Origin: a virus
IMG/VR virus record: IMGVR_UViG_3300045988_134806
Location: 535 to 64,534 of that record
Direction: 5' to 3' (one strand)
Length of the DNA stretch: 64,000 nt
The position numbers were made by a program, and so were the translations under genes. The notes below the pieces were generated by a model. The model was not told where the DNA came from, did no database searches, and worked only from the letters and a program-made list of their open reading frames with translations. Shown here in pieces: positions 12,101 through 64,000 of the stretch (within the stretch, counting starts at the first letter, position 1; each line of letters starts with the position of its first letter).

Positions 12101-15100
12101 GAGAATACGGACAAGTCTCGCACCGAGGAAACGAAGGCCGTAGAAGAAGCTGATAAAGCTGCTGCTAAAGCAGAAGCCAAAACGGAAGAACCGAAGAAAG
12201 CTAAATTCGGAGAAGCTCTGAAAAAGGCCTTTGACGAAGCGAAAGAGAAAGCTAAAACGGAAGGGGAAAGCAAACCCATAGAGCTTAAATCGGCCCCGAA
12301 ATCTCCCAAAGATCCGTTTAAAGGGACTGAGGAGAACAAGGCTACTGTCTCTGCCGTGGAAGGAAAAGAAAAAGATGCCAAGGCAGTTGCTAAGGCAGAG
12401 ATGAAGGTGCGCTCAATTCTTGAGAGCATGCAGGATTACTTAGACGGGAAGAGAAAGAAGAGACTCTCGGAAAACCAAGTAGACCTTGTCAATGAACTTA
12501 AAGACAAGGGCTTCCTGTTTGTAGACGACGAAAAGGTCCTTGACGACTATAAGAAGCGTATTGAAACCAAATTTGGAAAATCAACACGCCATGCCTCAAA
12601 GTCTGCAAAGACTGATCCTGAAACATCCCGAATTAGAGGGCTCCAAAGACTCCAAGAAGCCTTGGAAAATAGGACATCCGCACATCGGGCGATGTGGAGT
12701 AAACCGATCAGTATGTGGAGCCCGTCTTTGAACGGATGGGTTGATTTTGACTATGGGAGACTTGGAAGCATTATCGACGAAAACTTCACCACAAAAGGAG
12801 CTATGGGTGTTTCCCATATTGTCGATAAGAGAAGTTTAGCTCAAGGATTAAATCCTGCCGAAGTGGCCTTAGTCTTAAGAGAGATGGTTAACACTGTAGC
12901 TTATGGAGAACAGGTTAAGGCACATGAAAAAGCAGTACTCTTAAAGAGTGACAAGTTCAAGGTTGTTCTTTCGAAGAGCGGAGGAAACTCGTATGTAATT
13001 ACGGGTTTCGGTAAGATAAACAAAGGGGAAGCTGTGTCCTCCGGCACGTCAGACACAGTTTATTCCGCTCAAGCCAATTTGGACGCCCATGGCAAGAGCA
13101 TACCCCCGATCCTAGAGAGAGAAAAGAACCTTTCTAGGATCGTAAAAATTATCGCAGACCAAAAGCTTCTTTTCAAGGGTGACGAGCTCAAAGCACGCAA
13201 AGCTTCCAAGAGTTCTCTGACCGAAAAACAGAAGAAGCAGAACTACAACGATGTCCGAAACGGCCTGAATAAGTCGTGGGGCGTTTCAACGACTAAAGAG
13301 CTGCTGGACTCCGGAAAGGTGGTGATCTGTGATTCCAACGAAGGGTTCATTGACACTATCGTCAAAGATTACCTTGCCAAGGACCCGAACTTGTCAGAGG
13401 AAGAAGTCAGAAACACTCTCCACGAAGAAGGTCTTGACAAAGGAACGAACGCTATTTACGACGAGAACACAGGGAAGGTCTACATCAACGGCGAAAACGT
13501 TGATGAAAATGAGGCAGGCTCGGTACTTGCACATGAAATCGGTGTACACGCTGCTAAAGACTCTGAGTTCAAGGGGCTTGTCAAAGACATCGAAGACCGT
13601 GTCGCGACTTTGATGGCAGAAGGATTAAAGAGCAAGAACCCTGCGGTAAAGAAGTTTTGGGAAGATGTTAAACGCCGGATGGATGACGCCGATGTTTCTG
13701 ACAACGAAGAAAGACTTGCCTACTTCTTGGAAGTCTACGTTAAACGAAACGGCGTTATCCCTCAGTCCATCCAGTCTGAAATGTATCAGGCCATCGGCCA
13801 ACTTAAGGACTGGCTTCTTAAGTTCCTTGGTATTAAGAGCATCAATGAGCACAAGGCAGCCGAGCTTCTATGTGACGTAGTGAGAGCTTACGCCGATCAG
13901 AGCGCTATGGAGAAGGGCGGCGGTCGTCATGCTTCCAAGAAAGGTAAAAACGATAAAAGCGACAAACCCAAGAAACCCCGCAAGCAGCTCACACCCGAAG
14001 AAAAGGAAAAGAAAGAGAAGGAAAAGCTTGCCAAGATGACACCGTCGCAGAGGGCAAGTTATGAGCGGCGAAAAAAGATCGCCGATCTTAAGAAGGAAGT
14101 ACAGAAGCAGAAAGACTTTAGAGAAGGCGAAGCCTACAGAGATCAAAAAGCTCAAGAGGAGGACATGAAGGACTTCAATGACCTCCAAGGTGGGAAGCCT
14201 ATTGTTGAGGTTGTCAAAAGCCGAAGTGAAAGAGCTTCCGGCATGGAAAAGCAGGCGTATGCAATCGGCGAAAAAGTTCTCGCTTATCTTAAACGGGCGG
14301 CTACATACTTAAACTTTAGATTCCTTAAGTTCACCAATGAGCTCGTAAACGATATCGGTGAAAGATGCCCCGCTGCCAAGGTCTGGTATAACGAACTGTT
14401 GGAATGGGGCAAGGACCGTCAGAAGTACAGAGCAGAAGCTCAAGAGATTTTCTCTCGTTTTGACAAGTTCCCTAAGAACGTAAAAGACGAAGTTGAAAGC
14501 CTTCTCTTTGACAGCACCACGTCAGGGCAGTGGGCCTTCGATATTTCTGACTGGAAAGATGCTAAGGGCAATAACCTCACAGCAGAAAAATATTCCATCA
14601 ATCCAGAACTTGAGGCTCGCTTCGATGAGCTGGCTAAAAATAATCCGCAGGCAGCGATGGTTGTCTATGACACACTGAAACACGGCTACGATCGTTTCAT
14701 CCAAATCAAGACCAAGATCGACACTGTCGGCAAAGCTGTCTTCGGAGATAAGTATCGTTCGCTGATTAAGATGCCAAAGAGCGTCATGCCCTACGTACCC
14801 TTGGTTCGTACAGGTCAATACAATGTTGTGTGGCGGAGCCATCAGCTCAAGGCCGAGTACTTGATGCTGGATAAGCTCAAAGCAGAACGTGATGCATACG
14901 AAGAAAAGAAACAGGATATACCTAGCGCGCTAACCAATGCGATTAAGAACACTGAAAGCAAGATTGATGCAATGGAACGCAACGAGAACCATTATGTCGT
15001 GTCTCGTTTCGACAGCCTCGCCAAGGCGATTGACTTCCAGTCGGAACTTAACGGCCGACAGCGTGACAACCAAGCCACGCTGACAGATGTCGGCGATCAA

Positions 15101-55379: not shown

Positions 55380-55388
55380 CCAAGACTT

Positions 55389-55429
55389 GAGGGGGTTTAA
55401 GGGGTTGCAGCTGTGCGGCCGGCCCCCTC
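55389..55429 (+). terminator. GC-rich hairpin after the capsid gene (possible leaky terminator)
   Basis: GAGGGGG...CCCCCTC, a 7-bp stem enclosing a 27-nt loop with an internal GGCCGGCC palindrome. No T tract. Confidence 0.3.
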
Positions 55430-55446
55430 GATTCGCCGGAGGTTTT

Positions 55447-56124
55447 ATGGGAGTTCTTACTGCTAAAGACATTATCAATCGGGCCTCTTTCATTTTGAAA
55501 GATCCCGAGAATGTTCGTTGGCTCAGAGATGTCATGTTGGACTACGTCAACGAGGCCCAAGCGGCTGTTGTGCGATTCCAGCCGTCGGCCAACAAGGTTA
55601 GAACTACCATAAAACTTCAGGAAGGGACTTCTCAGGAGCTCCCGGAAGACGCCCTTTGCCTGCTTACTGTCACACGCAACATGCTGGACGGAGAGCCGGG
55701 ACCTGCCATTCGCTTGGCAACACGCAGCATTTATGACGCGATGTTCTACGACTGGCACGAACAGTGGCCCGAGTCTTACGTTATCAACTACATCTACGAC
55801 GACAGAGAAGGCAGAGAATTTGAGGTTTACCCGCCTAACGACGGGTCAGGAGAAATTGAGGTCGTTTATTCGGCCCTTCCGCCGGTCATCAAAGAAGACG
55901 ATGAGCTTACGCTCGGAGACGAGTTCGGGACCATTATTACGAACTACGTGCTCTATAAATGTGCTCTTCTGGATAGTGACTTCAACGGCACGCAAAGCCT
56001 CGCTCAGTTCTACTACCAGCTCTATCTCTCTGAGCTTAACGGACAGAGCCAAGCCCAAAGCAAGGAAGGCCCGAACCCGTCGCATTCGACAGGGCCCATC
56101 GCCGCAAACGGAGGCACTGAATGA
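55447..56124 (+). CDS. putative head-tail adaptor / head completion protein
   Basis: 225 aa from the ATG at 55447 (MGVLTAKDIINRASF). Position after the capsid gene. Similar overall layout to the next ORF. Confidence 0.5.
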   Translation: MGVLTAKDIINRASFILKDPENVRWLRDVMLDYVNEAQAAVVRFQPSANKVRTTIKLQEGTSQELPEDALCLLTVTRNMLDGEPGPAIRLATRSIYDAMFYDWHEQWPESYVINYIYDDREGREFEVYPPNDGSGEIEVVYSALPPVIKEDDELTLGDEFGTIITNYVLYKCALLDSDFNGTQSLAQFYYQLYLSELNGQSQAQSKEGPNPSHSTGPIAANGGTE

Positions 56125-56750
56125 CACCTGTGGATAAGTTTTTACCCTTTGTTCTGCCCTATGCCGACAGTGTTCCGCTGCCTGTGGCAAAAGTGGCGAT
56201 TGCAAAGGCTGCCAGTCAGTTTTGTACTCAGTCTCTGCTTTGGCAGGAAGAATACCCGGAGGTGAAAGTCCACCCCGGAAAGTTCGTTGAAATTCCTGTT
56301 CCTAAATCAGCTATGGTGGTGAAGGTGATGTCTGTGGCCTACAACGGATATCGGCTCACCTCAACCTCTCGGGATGAGCTTAATTCTACAAACGTGATCG
56401 ACTATCGCCTCTTTGACGGGCCTCCGAAGTTCTTCTTTCAAGCGGATTTAAACGTTTTAAGACTCGTTCCCGAACCGGTTAAACACGGTGTTTTATCCAT
56501 CGTGGTAGCTCTGGCTCCGACGCCTGAGTCAACCGAGGTGCCAAGCAGCCTCTATACGCGCTTCTGGGAAGCGATTGCAAACGGGGCCTTAGCGGATATC
56601 AAGCAGATTCAAGGACAGTCCTACAGCGATCCTAATGCGGCTCTGGCCTATAAGACGCTCTTTCAGCAGGGTGTTAGAGAAGCGAAAAATGAAGCGGTAA
56701 GGAGTTTGGGAAGAACGGTCGGAAGAGTTGCATATCAGAGGGTTGTATGA
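56121..56750 (+). CDS. putative virion (neck/adaptor) protein
   Basis: 209-aa ORF with ATGA coupling on both sides. No motif recognised. Confidence 0.5.
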   Translation: MTPVDKFLPFVLPYADSVPLPVAKVAIAKAASQFCTQSLLWQEEYPEVKVHPGKFVEIPVPKSAMVVKVMSVAYNGYRLTSTSRDELNSTNVIDYRLFDGPPKFFFQADLNVLRLVPEPVKHGVLSIVVALAPTPESTEVPSSLYTRFWEAIANGALADIKQIQGQSYSDPNAALAYKTLFQQGVREAKNEAVRSLGRTVGRVAYQRVV

Positions 56751-58027
56751 CAGTAAAAATTACAAACAATGCGTGGGGAACACTCGCCGTCGGTGTAAAC
56801 GACTCCGACACAACGCTGCTCCTTGGTACAGCCCAAGGGGATCGTTTCCCGACATTACCGGCGAATAATGCTTTGAAGCCGGTTGACTGCTTCTACGTCA
56901 CGTTAATCGATGAGTCTACGAATGAAGTTGAAATCGTTCGTGTGATTGAGAGAAACGTTGATGTTCTATCAGTGGTTCGTTCTCAGGACGGGTCGCGTAG
57001 AAAGCAGTTCCTAGCGGGCTCTCGTGTAGAGCTTAGACCGGTTGCTGCTCTTTTTAATTCAAAGAAAGACGCAGTCGAGGCCGCTGAGGATAAACAGGAA
57101 ATTCTTGACAAAATTGGCTTATTAGAACGAGAAGCTAAAGAAGGGATTGAGAATGCAGTTCAGAAAGGTGAGCAGAATTTAACCGACGGGGAACAGGCGC
57201 AAGCCCGCGAAAACATCGGTGCGATGTCTTTAGATACAGACGAAGAAGCCAACGGGTCTAAAACTTGGTTAAAACCGCAGTTTCACAAGAACAATGTTGT
57301 TTTGTTGCAGCGAAGCGAAGATAAAAACAGCTTCGCACTCATCGGCCGCATGGCAGAAAACGACGCTTGGATTATTCGCGGCATTGCAGAAAACATTCAG
57401 AACGGCGCTAATAATACTTGGACGACTACTGACAACGGAGCCTTGGAGTTGGCGACCGCAGACAACGGCACAGAGCCTATCTACGTTACGCAGTATTCCG
57501 GCGGAAAAATTCCGGATTTAGATCAGGTAAGTATCGAAGGCTGGGATGGTTGTTTTGGAGAAGTCTTACATAGGGCTGTGATTTTGGACCGTTCCGGCAA
57601 CACTTTTTTTCCAGGAGTTGTTTATGGTTCTAGCTTTCAAGCTACGTCCGACAGAAGACTTAAGTTCGGTTTTGAAGAGGTTGCTAAAGAGTCTGTGCTG
57701 GACGCAATAACACCATACCGTTATGGCCGCTTGGATAAGCATCCTAAAGAACGTTTTATCGGGGTTATTGCTCAAGACGTACAAGAGGTTATCCCAGAAG
57801 CTGTGAGAGAAGACGGTAATGGGTATTTGAGCGTTGACTATGCCGCGCTTACAGCTGTGCTGTGGGGCGAAGTCAAACGATTGAAAAACGAAATTAAGGA
57901 GATCAAAGATGGCATGCGGAAAGAAACCTTGCAAACCGAGCAAAAAGACGCCCTCCAAGAAGCCGTGCAAGAAGTGCTAGTTAAACCTGCTAAGCAGGTT
58001 TGTTCAGGACGACAAACTAAGAGGTAG
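56747..58027 (+). CDS. tail fibre/spike with C-terminal S74 intramolecular chaperone domain
   Basis: LTDGEQAQARENIGA fibre motif. C-terminus SSFQATSDRRLKFGFEEV...IGVIAQDVQEVIPEAV...YLSVDYAALTAVLWGEVKRLKNEIKEIK is the endosialidase-type auto-cleaving chaperone (Ser at 57647-57649). Confidence 0.85.
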   Translation: MTVKITNNAWGTLAVGVNDSDTTLLLGTAQGDRFPTLPANNALKPVDCFYVTLIDESTNEVEIVRVIERNVDVLSVVRSQDGSRRKQFLAGSRVELRPVAALFNSKKDAVEAAEDKQEILDKIGLLEREAKEGIENAVQKGEQNLTDGEQAQARENIGAMSLDTDEEANGSKTWLKPQFHKNNVVLLQRSEDKNSFALIGRMAENDAWIIRGIAENIQNGANNTWTTTDNGALELATADNGTEPIYVTQYSGGKIPDLDQVSIEGWDGCFGEVLHRAVILDRSGNTFFPGVVYGSSFQATSDRRLKFGFEEVAKESVLDAITPYRYGRLDKHPKERFIGVIAQDVQEVIPEAVREDGNGYLSVDYAALTAVLWGEVKRLKNEIKEIKDGMRKETLQTEQKDALQEAVQEVLVKPAKQVCSGRQTKR

Positions 58028-58029
58028 AG

Positions 58030-58311
58030 ATGGCATATAGCAAAACGGACTACCGGCTTTCCGACGGTACAGATTTGATCGAGCTTTTTAAAAACCCGAA
58101 TTTAAGCGGCTTAACTCAGTCGATTCAGAACGTTATGAGAGTTGGTGCTCAAACGTTCTCTGTCACGAAAGACCGTTTAACAGTCTCGGCAAGCAGAGAT
58201 GATTTTGGCAGGCTTATCGGAGTGAATCTTGATTACAAGTGTCCTGATTGTGCGGATTATCCGTGCAGCGACTCAGGGGATAGTTGCTGTAACGAATGCG
58301 ATGCGGGCTAG
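58030..58311 (+). CDS. 93-aa protein with Cys/Asp-rich C-terminal core (candidate radical-SAM substrate)
   Basis: AAGAGG RBS. All six Cys lie in the last 23 residues, KCPDCADYPCSDSGDSCCNECDAG (58240-58308). Directly upstream of the rSAM/SPASM gene. Confidence 0.6.
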   Translation: MAYSKTDYRLSDGTDLIELFKNPNLSGLTQSIQNVMRVGAQTFSVTKDRLTVSASRDDFGRLIGVNLDYKCPDCADYPCSDSGDSCCNECDAG

Positions 58312-58329
58312 GAACAACGGAGATTTTTA

Positions 58330-59496
58330 ATGAAAACAGACTTCGGAAGAATCTATGTGATGATGGGTACAGCTTGCAACTTTAATTGTGTGTACTGTTC
58401 CCAATCGACTTCTCAGCAGGGTATTCAAAAGACAGAGTGCCGTCCTCACATATCTAAGCGTCCAAGCAAAGAGTTCTTAGACTACATGAAGCGCTACGGC
58501 GAGGCTCTCGATGTAACTAACTTAAAGCGAAAGCCCACCATTGCCTTCTGGGGCGGGGAGCCTTTGCTTTATTTCGATACTATCAAGCAGATTATCGATG
58601 TGCTTGGAGAAAATGTCTCTAAGTTCCGTCTTGGGACAGTCACTAATGGAGAGATGATTACTGATGAGATGGTTGATTTCTTCAACAAAAACCATGTAGT
58701 GGTCAACCTTTCTCACGACGGCCCTAAGACAGTTGTTACACGCGGAAAAGACGTGCTGAAGAGCTCGGTCATTAGAGATCGCTTCCATGCTTTGAACTCT
58801 GTGACGTTCCATACGGTTATCAGCGGCGTGACACAGGATCTCTACAGGAACTGGGACTATTTTGCTGAGATGGGTTTTCCTGAGAATGAGAATACTTCTT
58901 ATATGCAGATGATGGTGTACCCGTATGACGGTATCCCGGACTATCTGCTCAAGTTCGATCTTGCTAAATGGGAAGAGACCCTTCAGAAAGTCGTGGCTTC
59001 GCTCTACAAGTCTTTCTTGGAAAACAACGGTGAAGTCAATGTCAGAAGCAAAGAATTTCAGGTGATTACACATCAGCTTGGAAGTCTTTATCGCTCTAAC
59101 TATGAACATTTCAAGGCTACGGGCGAAGTCCATTATTGCCAGACAGCGACGAAGATGCTGGCAGTGGATGTGCAAGGTAAGACTTATTTCTGTCACAACT
59201 CCAGCAAAGAAATCCTGCCTGTTTACGACCCAAATTTTGACAGCCTTTATGCGGGCCTCGCAGAAGACATGGTTTGCAAAACCATGAAGGACAGTCGAGA
59301 TTATTGCAGGGATTGTGAATACGGTTATTTCTGTACAACGTCTTGTCCGCTCCCGCATGATAAAAGCAAAGCTCAAACGCTTTGTGGCGCTGTTAAGTTG
59401 CTTTGCGAATACGTTCGTAGGTATTTCCATTTAACGGAAGCATACAGAGGGAATATCGTTCTTCCCGACTCTATTAAGGTGCCTAGACATGCCTAA
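58330..59496 (+). CDS. radical SAM enzyme with SPASM domain (peptide/protein-modifying maturase type)
   Basis: GTACNFNCVYCSQ (CX3CX2C). FWGGEPLL. VTNG. SPASM signature C-QTATKMLAVDVQ-G-KTYF-C, then CRDCEYGYFCTTSC (CX2CX5CX3C), then further Cys. Confidence 0.9.
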   Translation: MKTDFGRIYVMMGTACNFNCVYCSQSTSQQGIQKTECRPHISKRPSKEFLDYMKRYGEALDVTNLKRKPTIAFWGGEPLLYFDTIKQIIDVLGENVSKFRLGTVTNGEMITDEMVDFFNKNHVVVNLSHDGPKTVVTRGKDVLKSSVIRDRFHALNSVTFHTVISGVTQDLYRNWDYFAEMGFPENENTSYMQMMVYPYDGIPDYLLKFDLAKWEETLQKVVASLYKSFLENNGEVNVRSKEFQVITHQLGSLYRSNYEHFKATGEVHYCQTATKMLAVDVQGKTYFCHNSSKEILPVYDPNFDSLYAGLAEDMVCKTMKDSRDYCRDCEYGYFCTTSCPLPHDKSKAQTLCGAVKLLCEYVRRYFHLTEAYRGNIVLPDSIKVPRHA

Positions 59497-60235
59497 TTTT
59501 GTCTGCTATCGGTCGCCTACAAGCGCCCAGAAACGAAAGGAAACTGGTAATCCTGATCGAATTATGAGGAAACCGGGATTTGATCTTGTGCTTTTTCCGA
59601 CAGAAAAAGGAATCAGGATTGATTACAAAGTTCTGATGATGGAAAAGCTGTTGATGGCCGAGGGCAGCAAAGAAGTAGAGCCGGAAGTCGGTGTTCTTTA
59701 TTCCGTCGATTATTCTCTTTCAACTAAAGACGCATTTGTTAGAGAAAGTTCTTTCGGGAGTATTTCCGAAGTTAGCAACGCTCCGAAGATCAACATTGCT
59801 GCGATTCTTAAGCTTTCGGACGGAACAGTGTTAGTCAAGATCTCGAACATGATTTCTATTTCCTGCAACTCTAATGAATTTGGATGTGCGGAAGAAAAAA
59901 TCGTTGAGGCAGGAACGCGGCCCTTCACCTGTTTTAGCAGCTATAACGAAGAAGCGGCCGAGCTTATGCACGCCAGCCAAGCCAAAAAGAGCGCCTTGGT
60001 AGATATCAATTTTTTGGATTCGCTGTCTTATCTGGAAGCTCAGGTAGATATCTTGACGAAGGTTGTTTTGGCGGGCGGACTAGCAGATAAAGACGAGCTT
60101 AAGGAAGTGCTCATTAGGGCAGATGCTGAAGGTATTTGGCGCTCTAACAGCAAGGAAAAACTTCTAAAGAAGATGGATAAGAAACGCAAGTTCAGAGAGC
60201 TCCAACTAACCTACTACGAAGCTAATAAAAAATGA
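59489..60235 (+). CDS. hypothetical protein co-located with the radical SAM gene
   Basis: 248-aa ORF overlapping the rSAM gene by 8 nt. A+T-rich like its two upstream neighbours. No motif recognised. Start uncertain. Confidence 0.55.
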   Translation: MPNFVCYRSPTSAQKRKETGNPDRIMRKPGFDLVLFPTEKGIRIDYKVLMMEKLLMAEGSKEVEPEVGVLYSVDYSLSTKDAFVRESSFGSISEVSNAPKINIAAILKLSDGTVLVKISNMISISCNSNEFGCAEEKIVEAGTRPFTCFSSYNEEAAELMHASQAKKSALVDINFLDSLSYLEAQVDILTKVVLAGGLADKDELKEVLIRADAEGIWRSNSKEKLLKKMDKKRKFRELQLTYYEANKK

Positions 60236-62100
60236 CCACGCTTTCCCTCTCCAACTTCAACGGCCTCATCCCTCGCACGGGCCCGGCCAACCTCGATCCG
60301 ACAAATGCTCAGATCGCAGTCAATACTCGCCTTCAGTCAGGCGAGATTAAGTCTTGGAAAGGAAAGACAGTCGAATACCAGACGATCCAAGAGGGCGTGC
60401 AGACGATCTTTAAGCTCGAAGGGCCTTCCGGTGAAGGCGCTTGGGCGGAGTGGACAGTAGACACGGACGTGGTTTTCAGCCCGATGGCAGACTTGAAGGA
60501 ACATCGCTTCTACTACTCCGAAGCCGGTATTTGCAAAAAAGCTAACTGGACGATGGCCCATGACGGTCTTGATGGTACGCCGATCCCGAGAAACTGGCTC
60601 TATCTTGGTGTTCCTCGCCCCAATAAGGCGCCTCACGCTACAGCTACCCGCACAGACACGAGTCCTGAGAACACGGAAGAGCGAGCCTATGTCTATACCT
60701 ACGTGAGCACATTCGGAGACGTGAAGGAAGAGTCCGCTCCGTCGGATGCCTGCAATGTCACGGCCGATATCGTTGGTGGCAAAGTCGTTTTTGACGAGTT
60801 CCCGGTTGCGCCCACCGAGCACTACAACATCACGGCTCTGCGTCTTTATCGTGCAGTCATCGGATCGTCCGAGATCTCCTACATGCTTGTGGACGAGTTC
60901 ACAGTCGTCAAAGGCGAGGTAGTCACTTCCAAGAGGTCTCTCAACGGCGTTCGTTTCGAGGACGGCAAGTACCCGGACACGAGAAAGACCGAGCAGCTCG
61001 GCATTGTCTTAGAGTCGATGTACTACGAAGAGCCGCCGGAAGGCTTGCGCGGGCTTGTGAATATGCCGAACGGCATGATTGCAGGGTTTGTCGGAAATCA
61101 GGTGTGGTTCTGCGAGCCCTACCTGCCGCACGCGTGGCCGTCAACCTACATGCTGACGACTGATGCTCAGATCGTGGGTTTGGGTGTCTACGGTAACACT
61201 CTGGTGGTCTGCACAGAGCGCCAGCCCTTTACGATTGCCGGTACTCATCCGGCCGCCATGACGCAGGAAAAGCTTCCTATGCTGCAACCCTGCGTCAATA
61301 AACGTTCCATCGCATACGACCAGTACGGCGTGCTTTACGCCTCATCCAACGGTCTAGTGGTAATTGCTGGTGGGCAGATGGATGTATTTTCCCGTCCTTT
61401 GTTCACACGAGAAGGCTGGCTAGAGTATAACCCTGTAGTAATGGTAGGCTCCATGTATAACAACAACTACCTGTGCGGCTACCAGCAGGGCAACACTTCC
61501 GGCATGTTTGTTTTCGCTCGCGGTGATACCCCTGCGTTAATTAAAGTTGAGTTCGACCCGGTTTGCCTTTTCGTGGAAAGAATCACGGGCTACGTTTACG
61601 GACTGTCGCATGCCGACGGGATCGTTTACCGCTTGGACGCTTCCTCTACAAACCTCATGGGCTACACGTGGAAGAGCAAGATGTTCGTTTATCCGCGCTC
61701 GGTCTCGTTTTCCTGCGCCAAGCTCGATGCAGAGTTTGACGACAAAGAAGTGGCTGACATGCTTAACAAGCAGCGGCAGGACATCATCGACTACAACCGC
61801 ACACAAGCTGAAAAATACAAGGGGCAGTGCCTGCTGGGGTGCTTAAACGATGTGCCGGTGAACACTTGGACAGTAAACGGCGGAGTGCTCTTGGATGTTC
61901 CCGAGGAAGCGGAGGTGCGCTATGTGCAGCTCACGTTCTACTCCGACGGGAAAGCGATCTATACCAAGGACGTGGAAAACTGCGTTGCGTTCCGATTGCC
62001 CGCATACAACGGCTATCGCTGGGAAGTTCGCATGGCAGGACACCTGCCGATTAGGGCGTTTCAGATGGCAACCTCAATGGCGGAGCTGGTAGGCGAATGA
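60232..62100 (+). CDS. large tail/baseplate-type structural protein
   Basis: 622-aa ORF with ATGA coupling, in the tail block. No enzymatic motif recognised. Confidence 0.6.
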   Translation: MTTLSLSNFNGLIPRTGPANLDPTNAQIAVNTRLQSGEIKSWKGKTVEYQTIQEGVQTIFKLEGPSGEGAWAEWTVDTDVVFSPMADLKEHRFYYSEAGICKKANWTMAHDGLDGTPIPRNWLYLGVPRPNKAPHATATRTDTSPENTEERAYVYTYVSTFGDVKEESAPSDACNVTADIVGGKVVFDEFPVAPTEHYNITALRLYRAVIGSSEISYMLVDEFTVVKGEVVTSKRSLNGVRFEDGKYPDTRKTEQLGIVLESMYYEEPPEGLRGLVNMPNGMIAGFVGNQVWFCEPYLPHAWPSTYMLTTDAQIVGLGVYGNTLVVCTERQPFTIAGTHPAAMTQEKLPMLQPCVNKRSIAYDQYGVLYASSNGLVVIAGGQMDVFSRPLFTREGWLEYNPVVMVGSMYNNNYLCGYQQGNTSGMFVFARGDTPALIKVEFDPVCLFVERITGYVYGLSHADGIVYRLDASSTNLMGYTWKSKMFVYPRSVSFSCAKLDAEFDDKEVADMLNKQRQDIIDYNRTQAEKYKGQCLLGCLNDVPVNTWTVNGGVLLDVPEEAEVRYVQLTFYSDGKAIYTKDVENCVAFRLPAYNGYRWEVRMAGHLPIRAFQMATSMAELVGE

Positions 62101-62885: not shown

Positions 62886-62889
<4 letters not shown>
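62566..62889 (+). CDS. hypothetical protein
   Basis: 107-aa ORF with ATGA coupling to the collagen-like fibre gene. Confidence 0.5.

Positions 62890-64000
<1,111 letters not shown>

Follow-up and report, generated by a model that had tools for sequence, protein, structure and literature searches.

A candidate three-component radical-SAM maturation module in the tail-fibre region of an SU10-like Parasutterella phage

Radical S-adenosylmethionine (SAM) enzymes with a SPASM domain are known as maturases of RiPPs (peptides made by the ribosome and modified after translation) and of a few cellular proteins (sulfatases and QhpC). The SCIFF maturases among them act on precursors of about 45 amino acids (aa). 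PapB, the maturase of freyrasin, links Cys to the carbon next to the carboxylate of Asp or Glu and can also use a C-terminal residue (PMC12373016). Here, we describe an enzyme of this kind that is encoded among tail-fibre genes in 64,000 nucleotides (nt) of viral DNA (positions 535 to 64,534 of IMG/VR record IMGVR_UViG_3300045988_134806; this whole stretch is called the window), together with a 93-aa protein with a Cys/Asp-rich end (p93) and a 248-aa protein (p248). The three gene families are associated across many phage lineages, and several of the Cys-tailed proteins found in this way, which we call carriers, are tail fibres. We judge the chances slightly better than even that the three genes make up a three-component module for protein maturation, integrated into the tail-fibre section of the late operon in an SU10-like Parasutterella phage.

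The enzyme gene (58330..59496, + strand) encodes 388 aa and matches the Radical SAM superfamily model PF04055 (48.8 bits against a cutoff of 29.5, E 1e-12). Across 14 aligned homologues with 21-74% identity to the window enzyme, the Cys residues of the CX3CX2C motif CNFNCVYC (residues 16-23, 58375..58398, + strand), which would hold the SAM-cleaving [4Fe-4S] cluster, are invariant (C16, C20, and C23), as is GGEPLLY, of which GGEPLL, with the GGE motif of SAM binding, occupies residues 75-80. The SPASM region (residues 270-352, 59137..59385, + strand) has the seven conserved Cys expected to bind two auxiliary clusters, arranged as C270-x12-G283-x4-C288, C326-x2-C329-x5-C335-x3-C339, and C352, and all of these residues, including G283, are invariant in the same alignment. 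The SPASM model TIGR04085 scores 26.4 bits on the C-terminal region (E 6.7e-6), just under its cutoff of 27, and the Pfam SPASM model PF13186 has no match on the window enzyme (relative P0004 reaches 18.9 bits against 21.5), from which we take the domain to be divergent. An N-terminal RiPP recognition element (RRE) is absent from the enzyme, since the cluster motif begins already at residue 16.

The best NCBIfam matches of the enzyme are PapB (1.7e-20) and CcpM (1.2e-17), both full-length, and QhpD (3.6e-17), whose best stretch is the core domain, followed by HxsB, SCIFF, and the anaerobic sulfatase-maturating enzyme (anSME; TIGR03942, 1.1e-12). All of these are peptide or protein maturases, and each match is far below its cutoff. 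An earlier note on this DNA, made from the letters alone, had likened the enzyme to the sactipeptide, ranthipeptide/SCIFF, and anSME class; no curated cutoff is reached for SCIFF, PapB, or anSME. A profile of the enzyme family matches 8VPO (2e-33), CteB (2e-31), anSME (4K36, 2e-18), and SuiB (8e-11) in the PDB over the full length, and the match to cofactor enzymes such as MoaA is confined to the core domain, so that the enzyme groups with modifiers of peptides and proteins and not with non-peptide radical-SAM enzymes. The best of the structures, 8VPO, is a cyclopropylglycine synthase, and the chemistry is therefore not readable from this level of similarity. PF04055, the invariant Cys pattern, and the profile matches support the broader view of the earlier note, which placed the 388-aa protein among the radical-SAM/SPASM enzymes that mature peptides or proteins. 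Its close relatives are scarce, with one cluster at 99% identity and one at 74% among 5.8 billion proteins.

The gene of p93 (58030..58311, + strand), the proposed substrate, ends 18 nt ahead of the enzyme gene. Its AAGAGG ribosome-binding site (58019..58024, + strand), read directly from the sequence, lies within the 3' end of the preceding fibre gene, 5 nt ahead of the ATG; reading frames, spacing, ribosome-binding site, and Cys motifs are all as first described. p93 has exactly six Cys (positions 71, 74, 79, 86, 87, and 90), and its tail (residues 70-93, KCPDCADYPCSDSGDSCCNECDAG, 58237..58308, + strand), which holds five Asp, consists of four C-x-[DE] units, then C-D, and a terminal Gly. 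No other stop-to-stop segment in the window has at least four Cys in the last 25 residues together with a D/E/N-rich composition. We aligned p93 with four homologues (61-82% identical in that alignment). The invariant tail residues are C74, Y77, C79, D81, G83-D84-S85-C86-C87-N88-E89-C90-D91, and G93, the middle of the protein is variable, and residues 1-23 (MAYSKTDYRLSDGTDLIELFKNP, 58030..58098, + strand), a candidate docking or recognition segment by its conservation, are identical at 21 of 23 positions, with differences at residues 7 and 9. The N-terminal 39 residues, which include this segment, are predicted to be disordered. Searches of p93 against Pfam, NCBIfam, and PHROG gave no match, and neither did the precursor model TIGR04065. 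An AlphaFold model based on four sequences had a predicted local distance difference test score (pLDDT) of 50 and was set aside as uninformative. The p93 variant P0043 (nr DAJ56200.1) bears the public name 'General transcription factor IIH subunit ...', which looks like a spurious profile-based name due to the Cys-rich tail.

The third gene, p248 (59489..60235, + strand), was unrecognisable to the earlier note, and searches against Pfam, NCBIfam, and PHROG, as well as profile searches against PDB sequences and Pfam, indeed found no match. It is not an incidental reading frame, however, but a conserved third component. Its C-terminal half recurred in tblastn searches of the loci described below (cited by L numbers), where full-length homologues have 231-262 aa. 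The family signature is DSL[ST]YLE[AS]Q[VL]DLLT, and its YLEAQVD portion corresponds to p248 residues 181-187 (60029..60049, + strand). In the family alignment, whose 35 members are 15-33% identical to the window protein, there is no variation at E183, Q185, D187, or K232 and almost none at Y181 and L182. The hidden Markov model of the family identifies 41 loci with both p248 and a radical-SAM gene, on the same strand in all of them, and a search of 1.84 billion representatives returned 238 clusters at 50% identity. We rejected a fusion of the p248 helical domain to the enzyme N-terminus in several loci, as the proteins there are separate ORFs (open reading frames) of 231-262 aa. The only true fusion among the loci is in L106, where one 650-aa ORF comprises a radical-SAM domain (42-394) and a p248 domain (433-617, E 2e-14). 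An AlphaFold model of p248 (pLDDT 74.8 overall and about 90 for residues 1-140) predicts an N-terminal beta-sandwich with confidence and a helical C-terminal domain with less confidence; a fold search with this model found nothing in the PDB (best E 0.08) and weak hits only in BFVD.

Radical-SAM genes and Cys-tailed carriers in other phages

We collected 172 loci from viral contigs and GTDB genomes by radical-SAM homology alone and scored 169 of them for a strict tail motif, defined as C.C.C within the last 20 residues of a protein or the same motif followed by the start of a Hint or S74 domain. A carrier is encoded on the same strand as the radical-SAM gene in 79 of the 169 loci, compared to 6 of 169 on the opposite strand and 13 of 507 in shuffled DNA. 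Counted by lineage (radical-SAM clusters at 50% identity or more), the numbers are 27 of 59 on the same strand and 4 of 59 on the opposite strand. A relaxed tail criterion gave noisy opposite-strand counts and was dropped in favor of the strict motif with the shuffled-sequence control. The reverse complement of a (TGC AAC)n tail repeat reads CSCS in one frame, which accounts for part of this noise, so Cys tails on the opposite strand may be antisense shadows and are not a clean negative control.

For the reverse search, viral contigs were scanned for DNA encoding CNCNCDC. Where this motif lies at most 15 residues from the C-terminus of an ORF of at least 100 aa, a same-strand radical-SAM gene of this family is present in 55 of 70 loci, and 11 of the 15 loci without it have less than 2.3 kb of downstream sequence. 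Chance-type matches to the motif are accompanied by such a gene in 2 of 28 cases. The searches seeded with the enzyme and with the tail agree, and the association thus holds both ways. It is this co-occurrence across very divergent loci, beyond mere adjacency, that makes p93 the most likely substrate of the enzyme, as the earlier note had suspected.

The tails themselves are short and regular. One that stands beside homologous radical-SAM genes is CNCNCDCSDDGG. Distant homologues of the enzyme, about 25-31% identical (L012 on a 130-kb contig and the IMG/VR contigs L001, L002, and L004), are flanked by small ORFs that end in CNCNCDCDCGDDGG, CNCNCDCNCDCGGDDGS, CDCNCSDDGG, or CNCNCGDDGG. The 80 distinct carriers of the set seeded with the enzyme have 61-664 aa (median 137), and 42 of them have no more than 150 aa. 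The spacers between their Cys are N (51%), D (26%), or A (12%), and the residues after the run are mostly D, G, and S. The carriers of L014, L094, L039, L059, and L151 and gp028 of phage JWF match tail-fibre PHROGs and have typical fibre motifs. In public records, the proteins are named 'radical SAM protein' or 'hypothetical protein'.

Some independent lineages, a minority, have a self-cleaving module after the tail, so that the tail does not end the translated protein. An S74 domain stands directly after it in L280 (32 bits against a cutoff of 22; ...CNCNCNCDCLF, then SDDRLK), and a Hint-like domain starts at a Cys right after it in JWF gp028, L096, L100, L122, L213, L226, and L228. The scores of the Hint-like domains are all below threshold (Hom_end_hint E 3e-6 and 1e-4, Hint_2 E 0.007), and their N-terminal Cys and TxxH block are in register. 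With these modules cleaved off, the tail would be the mature C-terminus. The complete module is carried by two cultured Achromobacter phages, JWF and 2-1. In JWF, gp028 is a fibre whose end, ...RQNCNCDCNCNCS followed by CFPAGTMVLMADG..., consists of the Cys tail and then the Hint domain; gp029 belongs to the p248 family (E 1.6e-17); and gp030 is the radical-SAM enzyme (E 1.5e-38), annotated in GenBank as an anaerobic sulfatase-maturating enzyme.

The loci vary in their gene complement. Negativicutes prophages and phages (L001 9034-9846, L004 9013-9755, L015-L029, and L098-L110) encode, directly after the radical-SAM gene, two proteins of ~100-140 aa with Cys at every third position (CQxCQxCQ...) and CNCNCGDDGG-type tails, and a further carrier of 207-220 aa is encoded upstream, which makes three candidate substrates per phage. 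In one subclass of carriers (L013, L014, L017, L094, L097, L116, L012, and L228), the conserved motif GTYxLxxxLxxLVNxSHxH precedes the Cys tail by ~15 residues. Among 159 distinct carrier ends, its GTYxL-like part occurs in 20 and SHxH in 9, and the HxH is reminiscent of motifs that bind metal at the tips of other fibres. The Cys-tailed gene is accompanied by a row of three to five radical-SAM genes in L095, L096, L100, L106, L112, L115, and L120 (Sutterellaceae) and in L012, and only one of them is orthologous to the gene in the window; such tandems suggest multi-step or multi-substrate maturation. Ralstonia phage RP12 (L296) has three radical-SAM genes (ORF076, ORF077, and ORF079) beside a virion structural protein but no Cys-tailed ORF, and we do not use it as evidence.

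By synteny, composition, and links to L260, L094, and L097, the window appears to belong to this class. The closest radical-SAM enzymes outside the genus are those of L094 and L097 (E about 1e-42). There, the gene follows a tail fibre that ends in ...SHYHEISHYDCCDDCCGDS (YDCCDDCCGDS) or ...CDYNCDCCNDCCGDSE, tails with CC doublets and Asp like that of p93, and the p248 homologues have E values of 1e-24 and 3e-29. The Sutterellaceae loci L096, L100, and L115 have the layout fibre, Cys/Asp-tailed protein, radical-SAM genes, and p248 homologue; in L096 and L100, the fibre is of the S74 type and directly upstream of the Cys-tailed gene. Their tails are NCNCDCDCDCDCWDICDTDTDG or NCTCDVDVDVCDSDSDG, followed by a Hint-like domain, or CNCNCDCGCSDTDSDGD. 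Residues 37-71 of p93 (58138..58242, + strand) are homologous to the segment directly before the tail of a 371-aa carrier in L260, ...FRVSAGGYTITAKRDAYGRLLDLGFAKSDCNCDCNCNCDCGDSDSDGA (hhalign probability 92.8%, E 4e-7; BLASTP E 3e-5), which ends in ...KRDAYGRLLDLGFAKSDCNCDCNCNCDCGDSDSDGA and is part of a module (L260 81-9783) with three radical-SAM genes and a p248 homologue. From the homology to L260, the Sutterellaceae layout, and the L094 and L097 tails taken together, p93 emerges as a class member in miniature, which in essence corresponds to the end of a larger Cys-tailed carrier and is encoded separately. The window has the features proposed for the class, namely a Cys-rich tail with N/D/A/E spacers and a D/G/S-rich end, a homologous radical-SAM gene on the same strand, and an adjoining p248-family protein on the same strand (59489-60235). 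A homology of the p93 N-terminus to a Hint-fused 241-aa protein of Sutterella was considered and dropped, as the pairwise BLAST was not significant.

The tail-fibre operon and its relatives

The phage is of the SU10-like type, with SU10_portal and SU10_adaptor domains detected by profile search, and a Parasutterella metagenome-assembled genome contains a 99%-identical copy of it. The gene order S74 fibre, small Cys protein, radical-SAM, p248, and p622 (a 622-aa virion protein) is kept in every SU10-like relative recovered. A small ORF therefore stands beside the enzyme in every homologous phage, in line with the pairing proposed in the earlier note. The order is kept even in L173, where p93 identity is down to 56%, which argues against sporadic cargo. 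When the window is compared with L005, the capsid, radical-SAM, p248, and p622 proteins are 98-100% identical, whereas the S74 fibre is 80% and p93 82% identical. As these two diverge while their neighbours do not, p93 and the fibre appear to have been exchanged or diversified together, as in a host-range unit, and the co-variation suggests that p93 is assembled with that fibre.

The upstream neighbour of p93 is the S74 tail fibre (426 aa, 56747..58027, + strand), which has a C-terminal Peptidase_S74 intramolecular chaperone domain (PF13884, residues 301-354, 41.1 bits against a cutoff of 22) and matches tail-fibre PHROGs. The downstream neighbour of p248 is p622 (60232..62100, + strand; phrog_511, 4.8e-130). 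Both flanks are thus as first named. The radical-SAM and p248 genes overlap by 8 nt, and the p248 stop and p622 start by 4 nt. Between 50 and 64 kb, no promoter-like site was found on the plus strand and terminator-like sites are at chance level; with nothing to separate them, we read the trio genes as part of a single late transcription unit. The description of the trio as an inserted cargo cassette does not hold: every relative keeps it in the structural module, at identities as low as 56%, and neither a promoter nor a terminator delimits it. A higher A+T content of the trio was confirmed against p622 and the capsid gene (GC 0.44-0.47, compared to 0.545 and 0.518; window mean 0.489), but the S74 fibre gene is equally low (0.468). 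Among the window ORFs and by PHROG search, genes for a protease, an exporter, or immunity were found neither within the cassette nor close to it. A nucleotide search of the 6.2-kb region against GenBank phages returned no match.

Further downstream, a collagen-like fibre (62886-64000, running past the end of the window) starts with a Cys/His/Asp-rich N-terminus, which had been put forward as an alternative substrate. The Cys cluster is there, but the motif is lost in L173 and L174, which retain the trio, and we rejected it as a substrate on this account. The collagen-like fibre has 465-914 aa in phages that share its start or are otherwise ~99% identical (L005, L006, L297, and L298 surveyed); in L173 and L174, which are more diverged, its position is taken by proteins of 445 and 170 aa. 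L174 also has a BrnA antitoxin-family gene (13385-13705, - strand) just downstream of the structural genes, on the opposite strand. Two consecutive genes, probably paralogues, lie between the capsid gene and the S74 fibre in the window (55387-56750); the second (56121-56750, 209 aa) matches PF24175 SU10_adaptor directly, and the first is called as a 225-aa SU10_adaptor gene in near-identical contigs. L298 (ENA ERZ27252972, contig k141_71582, 234 kb) holds one copy of this ~65-kb phage, which could reflect prophage integration or a chimeric assembly.

Proposed mechanism and alternatives

We propose that, late in infection, the enzyme would reductively cleave SAM, and the resulting 5'-deoxyadenosyl radical would take a hydrogen from a tail residue that serves as acceptor (Asp, Glu, or Asn here, and Ala in other phages). 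The thiolate of a Cys would then form a thioether, aided by a SPASM auxiliary cluster, and repeats of this step along the tail would create a compact knot that resists reduction and proteases. p248 may present or hold the substrate in place of the missing RRE, and the modified p93 would be assembled with the S74 fibre into the virion. More speculatively, the terminal position of the tail could allow use of the C-terminal carboxylate or Hint-derived thioester chemistry. The crosslinks are probably thioethers, because the most similar characterised enzymes make Cys thioethers and the tail is nearly all Cys and possible acceptors. The wider proposal is that, in many phages of anaerobes and aerobes, a radical-SAM/SPASM enzyme and a partner of ~250 aa install thioethers in the C-terminal Cys tails of fibre or fibre-tip proteins, and we advance it tentatively, at somewhat less than even chances. 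If it is true, a crosslink might join residues of a single chain or connect the chains of a trimer; Hint and S74 modules would expose the tail or convert it to an activated thioester; the host-recognition tip would include the knot, which would explain the swapping of p93 with the fibre; and no earlier case would be known of a virion structural protein that a radical-SAM enzyme modifies after translation.

Several points weigh against this proposal. The chemistry is drawn from family resemblance, with every curated family cutoff missed widely (PapB 73.5 bits against 340), and modification of the tail is inferred rather than observed. We also infer the role of p248 outright, its fold and family searches being without match. 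About half of the radical-SAM lineages have no such carrier nearby, and the window tail (C..C....C......CC..C) does not fit the strictly alternating motif on which the statistics are based. No fibre domain is detectable in p93 by Pfam or PHROG, and its presence in the virion is a prediction from the genes. p93 has no significant BLAST similarity to the Hint-fused Sutterella protein in the same position, so that this link is positional and compositional only. Finally, the L260 module lies between the anaerobic ribonucleotide reductase genes NrdD/NrdG on one side and metallophosphoesterase and PhoH genes on the other, away from tail genes.

p93 could instead be the precursor of a free RiPP, whose N-terminal leader of ~65 residues is cleaved and whose Cys/Asp core becomes a diffusible ranthipeptide or sactipeptide, that is, a bacteriocin, signal, or anti-competitor molecule released at lysis from a module that is auxiliary cargo. 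Such a precursor would be small, as p93 is, and could have a disordered N-terminus (predicted for 39 residues) with an almost invariant, leader-like segment (residues 1-23); moreover, the nearest characterised enzyme families are RiPP maturases, and 42 of 80 distinct carriers do not exceed 150 aa. Yet the cassette offers no protease, exporter, or immunity gene to go with a free peptide, and the enzyme lacks an RRE. Elsewhere, identical tails end proteins of 200-664 aa, several of which are tail fibres by PHROG, p93 residues 37-71 are homologous to the pre-tail segment of a larger carrier, and p93 and the fibre vary together. All relatives keep the trio in the structural operon, where it has no signals of its own, and Hint/S74 processing of the larger carriers indicates protein ends and not released peptides. 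We consider a free peptide quite unlikely, and with it the ranthipeptide-type core behind a long leader that the earlier note had seen in p93. Alternatively, p93 might be a coincidental neighbour, an unrelated small structural protein or chaperone, and the enzyme might act on the N-terminus of the collagen-like fibre, on the S74 fibre, or on a host molecule. The Cys/His/Asp-rich N-terminus of the collagen-like fibre and the half of radical-SAM lineages without a recognisable Cys-tailed neighbour are compatible with this. We find it very improbable: L173 and L174 keep the trio but have lost the collagen motif, no Cys tail stands ahead of the cleavage site in the S74 fibre, and tail and enzyme are associated in both search directions.

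The tail could also be a metal- or Fe-S-binding motif that ends a trimeric fibre and carries no thioether, and the enzyme would then modify another target or help to load the site. Alternating Cys would face one side of a beta-strand, SHxH stands just before the tail in some carriers, tails such as CACACACACGK have few obvious side-chain acceptors, and the needle of T4 gp37 has HxH iron sites that offer an analogy. A passive site, however, needs no dedicated SPASM enzyme, yet the gene association is tight both ways, and the families closest to the enzyme all have substrates that contain Cys. Thioethers are also compatible with Ala spacers, since sactipeptide-type enzymes can use the C-alpha of Ala. 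We regard a metal site as unlikely, if the least unlikely of the alternatives. Improbable, in our assessment, is a different chemistry on the same tail, such as anSME-like conversion of Cys to formylglycine, C-C crosslinks, or epimerisation. Both the model (TIGR03942, 1.1e-12) and the structure (4K36, 2e-18) of anSME give full-length alignments, anSME likewise lacks an RRE and acts on proteins, and the best PDB match, 8VPO, makes cyclopropylglycine; but the anSME motif C/S-x-P/A-x-R is absent from p93 and the surveyed tails, PapB, CcpM, and QhpD all outscore anSME, and Cys combined with carboxylate or amide acceptors is the pattern of thioether substrates.

A clade of maturases dedicated to the ends of phage tail fibres would add a new kind of virion protein modification and would suggest a new way in which receptor-binding tips could be stabilised or shaped where the habitat, like the gut, is reducing and rich in proteases. 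Three gene families so far annotated as 'radical SAM protein' or 'hypothetical protein' are defined, and the module would account for the recurrence of radical-SAM genes in phage structural modules. For enzymology, it would provide RRE-less thioether-type enzymes for very short regular motifs ((C-N/D)n) together with a new partner, which are possible protein-stapling tools. For phage engineering and host-range prediction, a fibre placed in a new chassis may need its maturase and partner. The hypothesis is directly testable in JWF and 2-1, as both of these phages are in culture and have the complete module.

Comparison with described systems

PapB/PapA (freyrasin, NF047865) is the best-scoring family, aligned from residues 9-340 of the window enzyme to model positions 6-317 of 330, and pairs a radical-SAM/SPASM enzyme with a substrate rich in Cys and Asp. 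The window enzyme is nevertheless not a member of the equivalog (73.5 bits against a cutoff of 340). PapA is a short leader-core peptide with CX3D units, whereas the units here are C-x-[DE] or C-[ND]-C and the proteins have 61-664 aa and include several tail fibres by PHROG. The setting here is a structural module of a phage, with p248 as partner. The second-best family, CcpM (TIGR04068), aligns over the full length with 63.9 bits against a cutoff of 500, which again places the window enzyme outside it. To our knowledge, CcpM is defined bioinformatically and its chemistry is uncharacterised. The model of its CLI_3235 precursor (TIGR04065) is the only precursor model with a signal on a Cys-tailed carrier, the 86-aa ORF of L012 (E 0.0066, 16.6 bits against a cutoff of 26); unlike the module described here, the CcpM/CLI_3235 system is not phage-associated.

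QhpD (TIGR03906), the third-best family, is comparable in that it links Cys to Asp or Glu in a protein subunit, QhpC. The window enzyme reaches 62.2 bits against its equivalog cutoff of 453 and lacks the N-terminal extension of QhpD (the alignment starts at model position 98), and QhpC is a redox-enzyme subunit (quinohemoprotein amine dehydrogenase gamma) and not a virion protein. The SCIFF maturases CteB and Tte1186 (TIGR03974; 5WGG) are radical-SAM/SPASM thioether synthases that act on a Cys-rich C-terminal core. Only the core domain of the window enzyme aligns to the family model (54.1 bits against a cutoff of 425, outside the family), and the N-terminal RRE-like domain of CteB, ~100 residues long, is absent here (the alignment starts at residue 93 of the CteB chain). 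anSME (4K36) resembles the window enzyme as an RRE-less radical-SAM/SPASM enzyme of similar length with a folded-protein substrate. The score is 47.8 bits against the TIGR03942 cutoff of 349, which is below family membership, and formylglycine chemistry is not suggested by the composition of the tails.

The S74 chaperone and Hint/BIL modules of phage fibres are known as folding chaperones or inteins. In some carriers they directly follow the Cys tail, and the fibre in the window has an S74 domain; what differs is that here they would expose a Cys tail associated with a radical-SAM enzyme, a use for which we found no description. In the full texts searched, which included papers on JWF-like phages and left subscription journals mostly outside their scope, we found no description of a radical-SAM enzyme tied to Cys tails of tail fibres. 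The kind of enzyme is known; what is new, as far as we can tell, is the class of substrate, the setting among phage structural genes, p248 as a partner, and the exposure of the tail by Hint or S74 modules.

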